This document shows, in pieces, positions 15,001 to 21,000 of a stretch of 64,000 nt of DNA. The position numbers are program-made. Origin of the DNA: an uncultured Gammaproteobacteria bacterium (GTDB lineage Bacteria; Patescibacteriota; Microgenomatia; UBA10105; UBA927); NCBI GenBank assembly GCA_964449585.1, contig CAYUZE010000001.1:42836-106835 (forward strand), given 5' to 3'. The first letter of the stretch is position 1, and each line of letters begins with the position of its first letter.

Positions 15001-18000
15001 CCCGATTTGTAGTGGAAAAGCAAGGATAAGAAGAAAAAATAATCTTCTATGAAGTGCCATTACGGCTATTATACGCTTTTAGGTTTCACGAGCAGAATTC
15101 TTCCGTCACCTTCACCCGTCGATTCAGTCTCGATGCGTTCATCGCCGGAAAGCGTTAAATGAATGATTCGTCTTTCAGCAGGCGAAAGACGGGAAAGTTC
15201 GACCGGTCTTCCCGATGCAAGTGCCCGGTCCGCCGCGCGCTGTGCCATATGCATAAGCGCTTCTTCTCGTTTTTCCCGATAATCACCGACATTCACATAT
15301 GCTTTTACCCATCTGCCGAGTTTCTTGGACACAATCACCCCCAAGATAACCTGAAGGCTTTCAAGCGTTTTTCCGTGATGTCCGATAAGGAGCCCCGTTT
15401 CTTCGGTGGCAATGTTGATGCGAAACGCGTCTGTTTCATCCGTTGTTACGGAAACTGTTCCCGCGATTTCGAGTTTGGCGATAAGCTCTTCAACGACCCC
15501 GGTAACAATCTGTATATCTTCCATAGTTATGCCTCCTTATTTACTTGAAGTTGCTGAATAATACCAAAAAGCCCGAAAACGTTCCAGTAGAGCGCCAACC
15601 CTAACGGGAATTGATAGGCGAACATACCGAACATAATAGGCGTTATCATTGCCATTTGCCGCTGCATTTCAAGGGCGGTGTCCTCCGGTTTTTTCTCCTC
15701 CGTTTCTTTTGCCGCGGCGGGTTTTGCAAGTCCCGGCGCCGGAGCAGGGGGCATAACCAGCTTACTTTGCCACCACTGGAGTGCTGCGGTAACCACGGGA
15801 ATCAATAACAACCAATACCCGTGTGTTTGCCATTGGCTTGGTTTAACTCCGAGGTTCGTGCCGAAAAAAGAAAGATCAAGTGTCGTAATTTTAAGGGATG
15901 AGGCATACGCCACTTGATTAAGATCGCTGACTATTTTTGCGAGATCACCGTTTTGAAGCACCTGATAAAACACGTTATAGAGTGCGATAAGTACGGGCAT
16001 TTGCACAAGCAGCGGCAGACACCCTGACGCGGGATTTATGTTATGTGCCTTATATAAATCCATTTGTGCCTGCTGGAGCGCCTTTTTATCGTCTTTATGT
16101 TTCGCATTCAATGCATCTAAATGCGGTTTTAATGCCTGCATTTTTTTTGCTGATTTCATCTGCGCCGCCATAAGGGGATAAAGAATAAGACGGATGATAA
16201 TCGTAAGAGCAACGACCGCGAACCCCAGGGGACCCGGAATATGAAGCCATTCAAAAAACTTGTAAAACACCATGAGGAGGTTGATGATCGGCCAAACAAG
16301 TAACTGATTCCACAAGGTTGGATTTGTCATACTAGTGTTTCATCAAAGGAACGGGATCGAATCCTCCGCGGGAAAAAGGGTGACAACGCATGATCCTTCG
16401 TATCCCTAACCACAATCCGTAGATTATACCATAGCGGTTCACCGCTTGATACATATATTCGCTGCAGGTCGGTTGATACCGACAACCGGCACCGACAAGC
16501 CAGAGTGAACGAAACACACCGGTATCCGGGGAGAGATACTTTTGATACCAACGTATGGAAGTAAGCAATGCGCCTTTCATAATTTGGCGATAACATCCGC
16601 CTTTATCAGGATATTACGAAGCAGTGTTACCACTTCAGGTTGGGTACCGGGGATGCCTCCGCGAACAACCAGTATCCCGGTGATATCTGTCGTCATAGAA
16701 GGGAGCAGCAGCAGCACGGCCTCCCGGACGAGCCGTTTTATGCGATTCCGTCGCGTTGCCCGTTTATCAACTTTCGTCGGCACTATAACGGCAAAGGCTT
16801 TTTTTGCGGGAGTACGCTCAAATACCAACTCGATTGCCCCTTCTCGCACCTTCTTGCCGCGACGCAATAACGGCAAAATCATAAGGGAGGGAACACGCAG
16901 AGATTGTGGCAACATGCAAATGGTTAGACGGTAAGCTTTTTTCGTCCGACAGATCTGCGCCGCTTCAAGACCAGTCTGCCTTTTGCTGTTTTCATCCGCT
17001 CACGGAATCCGTGGACTCGCTTGCGCTTTAGTTTCTTTGGTTGGTAGGTTCGTTTTGGCATAGCTCTAGTATACCGAATTAGCGGTATTTCTACAAGTCA
17101 TGACAAATGGATCGTTACTTGCCGCCGCCCAATGCATGCACCCAGTGCTTAAATTGCTCCCCGCGATCGGCATAATCACGAAACAGATTATAGCTTGCGC
17201 TCCCGGGTGAAAGTACGCAGATTGCCCCCTTCGGGGTAGTATCATATGCCAACCGTACCGCTTCTTTCATGGTGTTCACCATGAATTTGCCAATTGCCCC
17301 TTCCTGAACCTGTCCTATTGCTTGCCATATTTTTTCCCCGGTATCGGGAAAAAGAATAAGCGTTTTTACGGGATGCTTTCGCAAATATGCTCCGAGTTCG
17401 GCAAAATCAAGATGCCGATCGTACCCTCCGGCAATAAGCGTCACCGCGTCGGAACCCAATGCGGAAAGCGCGTGGATTGTCGCCTGGGGAATGGTGGCCA
17501 ATGAGTCGTTGTAAAAGCGTATTCCTAAAAATTCTCCGACGTATTCCAACCGATGGGGAAGTGGTTGAAACGGCGTGATAGCCCGGGCAATCAACTCTGG
17601 CGAAGCACCGAGAACGGATGCAACCGCTACTGCGGCCAGCACGTTTTCCTGATTTCCCAGGAGGGGAATGTCCGCCAGAGCTATGACCGGCATCGACTCT
17701 CCTTGTTGATGAACGGTAATCACCCCTTGATCGATGGTGATGCGGTGATCACCGGCGGCCTCGGATCCATACGCTATTCTTCTTGCAGGGGAAGGGGATA
17801 TAAGGGTGCGCAAAATTGTATGCGCCGGATTATAGACCAGCACATCATCGGTTGTCTGATGCGCGACGATATTTGCTTTTGCCTTCGCGTAGCTCATAAG
17901 ATCCGGATAGTAATCCAGATGCTCCGGAACAATTCCCAGCATCACGGCAATATGCGGGCTATACCGGCAGTCATAGAGTTGATGACTGGAAAGTTCCATG

Positions 18001-21000
18001 ACAAAAACCGTTTTTTCCGTTGCCGTATCAAGCGAATCTAACATGGGAATGCCGATATTTCCCACAAGACGGACGTCGGGATAGCGAACTTTCAAAAGCT
18101 GGGCAATCAGACTCGAAGTCGTACTTTTGCCCTTGGTACCGGTCACACCGATCGTCATGCCTTTCACACGCGAAAAAAATATATTCGTGGCGCTAGTAAT
18201 GTGTCCGCCTCCGTTTTTGTAGGTTAATAACTCCCGGGAATAGGGAGATACCCCGGGACTCCGAATCACGGTCTCATATTCGGCTACGCGGGAAAGATAT
18301 CCTTCACCGGTATAGACGGTTACCCCGTCTTTTGTTTCTTCCGAGCTATATCCGGGAGCCCCATTCTTATCGGCAACACCGACGCGAAGCTGCGGGTAGT
18401 GAAGCCGCAGCCACGAAAGCACGCTTTTGCCTTCACGACCAAACCCGACGACAAGTGCAGAACTCCCCCGTATTTCATCCATAGTTATGTTGTAGCACGA
18501 TAGTTTACCAGTTGTGTATCCCAGGTGAGTCGGAGAAGTGCGAGATGTTCGGGGGGGAGGTTAAACGTGTCTCCCCACTGGCTGAGTATCTTCTCATCCA
18601 AAAAAACAGCATCCTCGTCAGTAAGGCCGAGATCGCTTTTTATTTTAAGTAACCCTTCCGGAATTTCCCGGGATTCACGTTGATACCGCCCGACAGCAAG
18701 AAGGAGTGCGAGCTTTGCCTCATCGCGCGTGCCGACACACTCAAACGGCTTGACGGGAGTTATTCCGACAAGCTCACGCAAATAATTGATGATAATGGGA
18801 TCATGAAAATAATCGCTTCCAAAGATGTGCTCCCTCTCCGCTACGGAGATAAAGGGGGAGAGGATAAGACAGGTGAATGCGCATTTCGGACATTTGCCGC
18901 ACCAAATTCCCTTTTTGCTCCCGGCGTTACAACTTCTGAAGCTTTCAAAGTACTCGGGCATACCGGCAAACAATAATCCTATCTGGACGTCATTGAGCGG
19001 TCGCAGCACACTGAAATAATTTGCCGCATCAACAAAAACCTCGGCAACATATTCTCTAAAGAGCGACTCAAAACGGAAACTTTTTGAATACTGATGATTC
19101 ACTTCAAGCCCTTTGTACATGACGTTTCCCTCATTTGCGCTTCGCTCATTGGAAACAATTACTGAGGTACTGCCGTACAAAAAAGCGACACTGATACCGA
19201 GAAACGCAAGGTAGGCGGAAAAGGGAGTATGCCCGTTAAGATACCCTTCATTATTAAGTGCGCCTAATCGGGGATCCATTTTGCGTTGTACGATGATAGG
19301 ATCGGTATATCCCGAAAGCGTCACTGCTTTTTGCGCCGCTTCCGTCGGATTTACTATCATGGTTTGGATTGATCTGTCGCTTTTTTTTAGCATCCCCAAC
19401 GTAACCGCAGTATCTTTTCCGCCCCCGACGAGCACCAAGTCTTTCGACGATACGACATTCATAGACGGGGCTACAGAACGCTCTGGAATCGCATCTCCGG
19501 TTGCGATAATCCGTAGAAAGTCCGGCCTGGTGAAATCAATGTCGTTGCGGTAGTAAAACTCTCCTAATCCGTGGATAAACAGGTCATACCAGAAACGTAT
19601 TTCATCATTAGTGAGCGAGCCCGCCTCAATCACGAACTCCCGGGGACATGCGGTTTTCCAATAACTTATCGCTTCGATAATGCCCAAACGATACGCGTAC
19701 GGAGCAAACGCTTGCGCATCAAAGGTACCGGAATAGGGAATCGTCGTATGCGGACGAAAGACAATGTCAGGCTCAAGCAAAAACTCATGTTCCACGACAA
19801 TTGCAGTCGGCGTTTTGGTGACGGTGTAGCGCTTATAAACAAGTCGCGGATGCTTCAGGCGAAGCTGTTCGACGGTCATGCCCCTTATTGTATCAAAATT
19901 ACGGCGAGACCTCCTGCCATGTCACGGATAACTCTTTCATACTGTCGGGCATGGTAAGCAAAAGCTGAGGATTATAGATAAACAATTCCGCGGCATTGCC
20001 GGTATTTCCCGTGCCGAATCCCTGTAAATCCCGTTGCAGCAAAAATCCGTTTGAGATAAACATACCCCGTCCCACAAAACGGGCGCTTGCGGCGGCCAAA
20101 CTCTCCCCGGTGTTAATACTGCCCGATTGCCCTTCCGTCGTTGCGATATAAATACCCTCCACGACGGGAGTAGTTGAAGAAGCGGTTGTTCCTACCGTAT
20201 CGGAAACGGTAATCGTGCCGTTAACGATAAATGCGATAAACCCGTTGCCGGTGATATTGATTCTTCCGTTAATCGTCAAATTTCCGTTGACGATAATCAC
20301 TATCCGTTCATCCGTCCCCACCGACCAAGCGCCACTCGTGGCCATATCTCCCACCACATAGTAAGGGGAGCAGGTGGAAGCGGTGCAGTTGGATGCCGGT
20401 TGGGTGACGGCGGTCAGGTTATCAAATGGAGCCGCGGTCGTAGGGGTAGTCGGGGCGCCGAACCGTCGATAGAAATAATCATAGTAATTCACACTTGCAC
20501 GACTGGTATTTACCTGCCAATTATCCGCCGACACGATATCGGCTCCCGTATCGTACGGATCGCTGTCAAAGTCAAAGCTCGTGCCATAGGTCATCACCCC
20601 GGGATAGCCGCCCGTTCCGTCGGTGATAAATACCCTCGGCGTTACGGAAGGAAGATAGGATCGGATTGTTCCGGAGCTATACACATCGCCTCCCTGCGCC
20701 TGTACCCAAGCAGTACCCAACGTATACCCGATGTCCCATTGCAGCACTGCGGCGTTAGGAAGATTCCTGGAAAGCCCTTCCGCATTGGTTCCGGTATCCA
20801 GGTTTCTTGAACACGCTCGTACGTACGCCCAGTCCGCGCTCGGCGGATTTGGATCTATCGTGTAGGTGCCGGCGGTGACACCGGAAAATGTCACGTAATT
20901 TGCCCCCGATTGCACCTGGGCAGCCGGTTGACTGGCGGACGAGGGGGTGAACTGGAGGGTGGTGCCGTTTACCTCGCCGTCCGTGGTGGGAATCGCACGA

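Follow-up and report, generated by a model that had tools for sequence, protein, structure and literature searches.

A probable MurD2/MurL pair for peptidoglycan D-glutamate in a Patescibacteria-type genome

The murL-murD locus and the MurL family

The window analysed here is a 64-kb stretch (64,000 nt) of contig CAYUZE010000001.1 in assembly GCA_964449585.1, and its minus strand carries a 464-amino-acid (aa) open reading frame (ORF), referred to below as murL, which starts a two-gene pair and is followed directly downstream by a 455-aa murD (Table 1). An earlier note on this DNA had put the pair forward as a candidate for the MurD2/MurL route to D-glutamate (D-Glu), in which L-glutamate (L-Glu) is ligated and then epimerised, and had placed the end of the 464-aa ORF 2 nt before murD. 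On the minus strand, the junction of the murL stop and the murD start reads ...ACA TAA ct ATG GAT..., a gap of exactly 2 nt, as the note had it. The murL ATG is preceded by an AAGGGG Shine-Dalgarno-like element and begins 19 nt past the stop of an upstream 538-aa ORF. Because more than 7,564 database proteins match the 464-aa ORF at E ≤ 1e-5, the best of them over 98-100% of its length, it is a real gene and no chance frame.

Table 1. Features of the murL-murD locus, in window coordinates
Feature	Coordinates	Strand	Basis
murL; MurL with N-terminal MurL_N domain, predicted QueC-like PP-loop domain and C-terminal helical region	18485..19879	-	
MurL PP-loop V151-G-G-G-K-D-T157, variant of the SGGxDS ATP-pyrophosphatase motif	19409..19429	-	Invariant residues; alignment with TtuA and QueC
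MurL Cys cluster C317-x9-C327-x2-C330-x2-C333, putative QueC-type zinc site	18881..18931	-	Four Cys invariant in 80 homologues
MurL C381 in a KPFECVGT motif, fifth invariant Cys, outside the zinc cluster	18737..18739	-	Invariant in 80 homologues
murD	17115..18482	-	TIGR01087, 342 bits; three Mur ligase Pfam domains
MurD E187 (E. coli D182, X. oryzae MurD2 E197), stereospecificity position 1	17922..17924	-	Alignments
MurD R356 (E. coli K348, X. oryzae MurD2 R358), stereospecificity position 2	17415..17417	-	Alignments
MurD L328, replacing the Lys of the NDSKATN motif (E. coli K319)	17499..17501	-	Alignments
rpmH (ribosomal protein L34, 45 aa), context outside the pathway	16924..17061	-	53 nt downstream of murD

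A single NCBIfam model, NF041275 (MurL_Xanthmoales), matches the 464-aa protein strongly (E 2.1e-66, 224 bits; aa 56-394 against profile positions 55-392 of 447), and Xanthomonas oryzae MurL (XOO_1319) and its orthologues from Micromonospora sp. and from Salinispora tropica are homologous to the window protein over the same aa 56-394 (E 2e-66). The assayed MurL enzymes are those of Feng et al. 2017, as reviewed in PMC8788868 and PMC5808125. X. oryzae MurL shares two Pfam domains with the window protein, is of similar length (464 aa in the window, 447 positions in the model) and also lies directly upstream of a murD-type gene; the window protein differs from it in its host, which is of Patescibacteria type and outside the published list, and in its model score, which is weighed below. 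Precomputed annotations place the Pfam families PF26299 (MurL_N) and PF26298 (MurL_epimerase_C) on exactly the 464-aa sequence and on all 120 of its 120 top homologues, and one homologue carries the JGI name 'UDP-N-acetyl-alpha-D-muramoyl-L-alanyl-L-glutamate epimerase'. Its closest relatives that carry a name belong to Patescibacteria, namely Gottesmanbacteria and 'Patescibacteria group bacterium'. A Pfam-A version without the MurL families gave no significant match, just a marginal QueC match at aa 311-334; a PDB sequence search with this protein alone returned nothing, and no MurL structure is deposited; and in family-model searches no unrelated family scored. These matches support the placement of the 464-aa protein as a distant member of the MurL family, in line with the similarity that the earlier note had expected. 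That note's description of the PP-loop protein as uncharacterised is outdated, since current Pfam and IMG annotation already name the family.

MurD specificity residues and murL-murD linkage

The window MurD scores 342 bits against TIGR01087 (cut-off 212), contains all three Mur ligase domains and keeps equivalents of the catalytic residues K115, N138, E157, H183, K198, T321 and S415; since it passes this generic model, automatic annotation would name it a D-glutamate ligase. Residues were placed via HMMER alignments to solved MurDs and a MAFFT alignment, in the Escherichia coli numbering of the literature, and the comparison with the characterised X. oryzae enzymes was made via the NCBIfam model and the residue numbers given in the review PMC8788868. 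According to that review, X. oryzae MurD2 adds L-Glu, its E197 and R358 set stereospecificity, and the double mutant E197D/R358K turns it into a D-Glu ligase, while K319T makes E. coli MurD accept L-Glu (PMC8788868).

Inspection of these positions, a check that the earlier note had advised, shows that E187 and R356 of the window MurD match E197 and R358 of X. oryzae MurD2, and that Leu stands in the place of E. coli K319. We then compared 73 MurL-linked MurDs, defined as the murD-type ORFs adjoining murL, the window's included, which come from many phyla. Glu is found at the D182 position in 72 of them and Arg at the K348 position in all 73; the K319 position is Ile or Leu in 72 of the 73 and Lys in all three canonical MurDs taken from the PDB. 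In those canonical enzymes the residues at D182/K319/K348 are D/K/K (E. coli), D/K/K (Thermotoga maritima) and T/K/R (Streptococcus agalactiae). Based on Glu, Arg and Leu at the D182, K348 and K319 positions, as in MurL-linked MurDs, the window MurD is most likely of the MurD2 type and a user of L-Glu. Besides the Glu/Arg pair, it shares with X. oryzae MurD2 an aromatic residue at the F435 position and the pairing with murL, and it differs in having Ala at P433.

The linkage of the two genes was followed in a genome scan with one genome per species, which found loci encoding a MurL relative in at least 595 species-level genomes, spread over many phyla; the 80 closest loci were examined. Their Patescibacteria share comprises Gottesman-, Curtiss-, Beckwith-, Roizman-, Kerfeld- and Saccharibacteria and Paceibacterota, and the other hosts are Bacteroidales, Lachnospiraceae, other Clostridia, Acidobacteria, Rokubacteria, a cyanobacterium, an Actinomycetota metagenome-assembled genome (MAG) and Vitreimonas; no Xanthomonas is among the 80. 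In 73 of these loci the gene following murL, in the same orientation, is a murD-type ORF; the median gap is about 8 nt, and two of the 73 pairs are in-frame fusions (L017, 5827-8487; L057, 5914-8700). Five loci (L010, L011 from a cyanobacterial MAG, L013, L048 and L053) have no murD-type ORF within the fetched flank of murL, and in these the two genes may be unlinked or the MurL relative may have a different partner; L033 and L062 also have none, but their contigs end near murL. A family profile search of 1.84 billion cluster representatives yielded 3,294 clusters (50% identity) at E ≤ 0.001 and 1,544 at E ≤ 1e-30. MurL-MurD fusions such as P0125 account for 24 of the 150 best cluster representatives, and other fusions were seen once each, namely MurD-MurL (P0138), Mur-ligase-MurL (P0188) and MurB-MurL (P0225).

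The complete Candidatus Beckwithbacteria genome CP011210.1 (L019, 2557-12717) has the order Mur ligase, FemAB, mraY, murL, murD, ftsW, murG and, later, ftsA, so that the murL-murD pair fills the housekeeping murD slot of a division and cell-wall cluster that is standard in other respects. The FemAB-family gene just upstream of mraY-murL-murD in that genome hints at an interpeptide bridge in this organism of the Candidate Phyla Radiation (CPR). Reviews place MurD2/MurL in relatively few bacterial genera, with Xanthomonadales, a few Alphaproteobacteria and Micromonosporaceae as the hosts (PMC8788868); the distribution of MurL observed here is far wider than that. This spread over many phyla weakens the idea of MurD2/MurL inhibitors as narrow-spectrum agents against Xanthomonas and Stenotrophomonas.

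Predicted fold and invariant residues of MurL

An AlphaFold2 model of MurL, built on a 17-sequence alignment, has a predicted local distance difference test (pLDDT) value of 90.6 and a predicted template modelling (pTM) score of 0.91, and it is poorly defined only at residues 135-142. In a fold search with this model the top matches are followed by TtuA, NcsA, NAD synthetase, ThiI, LarE and TilS, every one a PP-loop ATP pyrophosphatase, and a Foldseek search is in agreement, ranking QatC and QueC top. The predicted fold of MurL is that of a QueC-like PP-loop ATP pyrophosphatase, and two marks of the QueC-like branch, an SGGxDS-type PP-loop behind the first beta-strand and a matching predicted fold, are found in it. 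The relationship is distant: QueC (7-cyano-7-deazaguanine synthase; PDB 3bl5, 2pg3) and the QueC-like proteins Cap9 and QatC (PDB 9nto, 9y01) share just 16-20% identity with the window MurL, which is extended by an N-terminal domain (about 130 aa) and by a helical domain at the C-terminus. It differs from these proteins further in its presumed substrate, a uridine diphosphate (UDP)-sugar dipeptide, and in the outcome of the reaction: where they form an amide or a nitrile or modify a protein, MurL would epimerise and hydrolyse.

The degenerate PP-loop and the CGKCPKC cluster that the earlier note had read from the sequence are both present, the former as the motif DLVLVGGGKDTAV at aa 147-159 and the latter within WCGKCPKC (aa 326-333), ahead of which another Cys stands at 317. 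When the family profile was compared with the TtuA PP-loop, 'dlvlvgGGkdsavt' aligned with 'ilvavsGGkdsavt' (E 0.005), and hhalign of the same profile against Bacillus subtilis QueC aligned the PP-loop alone (E 0.004). The adenylating PP-loop chemistry invoked in the note fits both these loop alignments and the QueC-like predicted fold. A survey of 80 MurL homologues (36-73% identity, many phyla) found G153, G154 and D156 of the loop invariant. For the Cys cluster, the weak Pfam QueC match mentioned above maps aa 311-334 onto profile positions 177-200, and the C-x9-C-x2-C-x2-C spacing in MurL resembles the C-x8-C-x2-C-x2-C of the zinc-binding Cys 186, 195, 198 and 201 in B. subtilis QueC. The four Cys of MurL would thus form a putative zinc site, although its equivalence to the QueC site stands on weaker evidence, since hhalign aligned just the PP-loop.

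Besides these loop residues and the four Cys, the residues invariant in the same 80 homologues include H217, H262, Q263, Y264, K266, E271, R293, K332 and the fifth Cys, C381, together with E69, Y73, K75 and N112 in the N-terminal domain. C381, H217, H262, Y264 and K266 are the candidates for proton transfer in this set. We hypothesise that C381, which lies outside the putative zinc site, could be an acid/base residue for inversion at the alpha-carbon. According to reviews MurL 'lacks known conserved domains' (PMC8788868), and our literature search found no paper connecting MurL with QueC. A QueC-like PP-loop with a Cys cluster would explain the published ATP-to-AMP stoichiometry of MurL, and the QueC-like fold gives the MurL mechanism a structural frame, made up of the PP-loop, the putative zinc site and a handful of invariant residues.

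Proposed D-glutamate route, rival readings and flanking genes

Based on homology, motifs, the predicted fold, the specificity residues and gene linkage, we consider it very probable that murL and murD form a MurD2/MurL pair, an alternative way of supplying the stem peptide of peptidoglycan with D-Glu. Ligation of L-Glu and its ATP-to-AMP-dependent L-to-D epimerisation have been shown for the X. oryzae, Micromonospora and Salinispora enzymes (PMC8788868, PMC5808125), and by analogy with these the window pair would have both activities. In the first step, the window MurD would add L-Glu. In the second, MurL would bind ATP on its QueC-like PP-loop and adenylate the alpha-carboxylate of the terminal L-Glu, presumably with release of pyrophosphate; adenylation would render the alpha-proton acidic, and MurL would flip L-Glu to the D form in a one-directional reaction. 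This sequence of adenylation, epimerisation and hydrolysis is the scheme proposed by the discoverers (PMC8788868). An oxazolone intermediate, chemically plausible for an activated N-acyl amino acid, is a speculation of ours. The glutamate racemase MurI, a cofactor-independent, two-Cys enzyme, has the same output as MurL, a D-Glu residue in peptidoglycan; it differs in having an unrelated fold, in acting reversibly on free glutamate and in needing no ATP. Cell-wall D-Glu in this genome would instead be made on a nucleotide-linked precursor, so that no free D-Glu pool would be needed, which would be a tidy solution for a very small genome.

The pathway has been known since 2017 and the family is covered by Pfam, NCBIfam and IMG; what is new is the host lineage, which is outside the list given in reviews. 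The side results are the QueC-like predicted fold, the fifth invariant Cys, the loss of K319 in MurL-linked MurDs and the wider distribution. More tentatively, and with rather less than even confidence, we suggest that MurD2/MurL may be a housekeeping and possibly the sole D-Glu route of many Patescibacteria (this genome included), Bacteroidales and Lachnospiraceae MAGs, and that MurL may be a QueC-type PP-loop/zinc enzyme in which C381 delivers the proton that gives the D configuration. The literature searched describes neither such a wide housekeeping role nor a QueC-type MurL with a proton-delivering Cys.

Several points weigh against the assignment of the window pair to the MurD2/MurL route. 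The 464-aa protein's 224 bits are far under the 700-bit equivalog cut-off of NF041275, which by the NCBI rule makes it a distant relative of the characterised enzymes and no orthologue; the model is clade-specific, and the low score thus reflects evolutionary distance, not another family. The characterised activities come from outside Patescibacteria. The canonical control set consists of three solved MurDs, which is the main weakness of the signature step. Where E. coli MurD has A414 and L416 (P433 and F435 in MurD2), the window MurD has Ala and Tyr, the Ala being the canonical residue, and Pro occupies the P433 position in 12 of the 73 MurL-linked MurDs. Neither position is diagnostic, however, because the P433A and F435L mutants of X. 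oryzae MurD2 kept their L-Glu specificity (PMC8788868). Lastly, the absence of murI holds for the 64-kb window alone, and PMC11974145 cites a title reporting glutamate racemase activity for the CPR member Ca. Saccharimonas aalborgensis.

These last two points also favour a related reading, in which the MurD2/MurL pair works and MurI or a D-amino-acid aminotransferase encoded outside the window provides a second source of D-Glu. It departs from the main reading solely over the lack of a glutamate racemase, which the note had linked with this route. Six-frame scans of the 64-kb window found no MurI hallmark motifs, and Pfam found no Asp/Glu racemase or class IV aminotransferase in almost every window ORF of 150 aa or more, a scan that omitted three short ORFs nested inside annotated genes; a literature search for glutamate racemase in Patescibacteria or the CPR returned nothing relevant except the title just mentioned. 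The published MurD2/MurL hosts, by contrast, are without D-Glu-forming genes (PMC8788868), and the pair sits in the housekeeping murD slot of the related complete genome CP011210.1. If the window MurD has specificity for L-Glu and no other MurD exists, peptidoglycan would offer free D-Glu no way in, which also argues against a second source. We regard this reading as unlikely, with perhaps one chance in several left to it.

A further rival concerns the chemistry of the 464-aa protein itself. Most PP-loop enzymes of this fold, such as QueC, NAD synthetase and asparagine synthetase, end with attack by ammonia, and the MurL-like protein might likewise adenylate the alpha-carboxylate of Glu and pass it to a nucleophile other than water; with ammonia the product would be iso-glutamine, which would make the protein an analogue of MurT/GatD, and MurD would be a normal D-Glu ligase fed by a racemase elsewhere. 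The low identity to the characterised MurL clade, with its score under the 700-bit cut-off, leaves room for such a function, as does the fact that the genome is known only from the 64-kb window. Against it, the linked MurD has the experimentally defined L-Glu signature of Glu and Arg and has lost K319, a loss that is sensible only if an epimerase follows; no glutaminase partner adjoins murL-murD; and the catalytic core of MurL is invariant from Patescibacteria to the relatives in Alphaproteobacteria and Actinomycetota. Because MurD bears the L-Glu signature and no glutaminase is nearby, we judge an amidating function to be improbable. Least credible of all is the view that the 464-aa protein serves deazapurine synthesis or anti-phage defence as an enzyme of QueC, QatC or Cap9 type, or modifies tRNA as a PP-loop enzyme, and lies beside murD by chance, given that no QatA, QatB, QatD or CD-NTase genes are nearby, that identity to QueC is 16% and limited to the shared fold, and that the frequent murD linkage and the fusions with MurD and MurB tie the family to synthesis of UDP-N-acetylmuramic acid peptides. 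The defence reading centred on QatC was also rejected on family models, PADLOC giving no match and NCBIfam neither a QatC nor a QueC match for the 464-aa protein.

murL has murD and two unannotated proteins as its neighbours. Both here and in the closest relatives of the window, the murL-murD pair lies directly upstream of the rpmH-rnpA-yidD-yidC-jag cluster, whose first gene, rpmH, is shorter than the default ORF length cut-off, and the order murL-murD-rpmH-rnpA-yidC-jag is kept in loci L001-L005 and L007. Loci L003, L005, L007, L032 and L059 encode MurL, MurD, rpmH, yidC and jag products at 50-79% identity to those of the window, in the same order as in Gottesmanbacteria; they are titled 'uncultured Gammaproteobacteria bacterium', and these titles look taxonomically wrong. 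Directly upstream of murL, on the same strand, are two large proteins of 538 aa (19899-21515, minus strand) and 689 aa (21556-23625, minus strand), for which family scans gave no significant match, the 538-aa protein showing only a sub-threshold DUF7305. A counterpart of the 538-aa protein occupies the corresponding position in L001 (82% identity) and L003 (51%); for the 689-aa protein this holds in L001 (61%). A four-gene unit is hinted at by a promoter-like site (23664-23635) together with a terminator-like hairpin (23699-23683); in the promoter and terminator scan of the window such sites were no more numerous than in shuffled sequence, and the operon boundaries are therefore tentative.

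Elsewhere, scans of window positions 1-64000 found no tRNA genes or Rfam families, and a phage-integrase-family ORF lies at 11-634. Between the rpmH-rnpA-yidC cluster and dnaA (62272-63639) there is a surface-glycan biosynthesis island of about 38 kb (23798-62154), which is large for a genome of probably about 1 Mb. It encodes many GT1, GT2 and GT4 glycosyltransferases, three Wzy_C/O-antigen-ligase-like and two flippase-like proteins, an adenosine phosphosulfate (APS)-kinase fusion and a sulfotransferase, a carbamoyltransferase, a DegT aminotransferase, two radical S-adenosylmethionine (SAM) proteins and an ABC-2 exporter. Within this island is a second QueC-like PP-loop protein, unrelated to MurL, of 303 aa (37302-38213, plus strand), with the motifs LLVSGGLDS and SC..CGRCLAC. 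It matches Pfam QueC at 1.3e-13 (C-terminal half only) and PADLOC QueC at 4e-13, and its NCBIfam QueC score is 34.8 bits against a cut-off of 150; it is not a genuine QueC, and it may act as an amidotransferase-like enzyme that modifies sugars.

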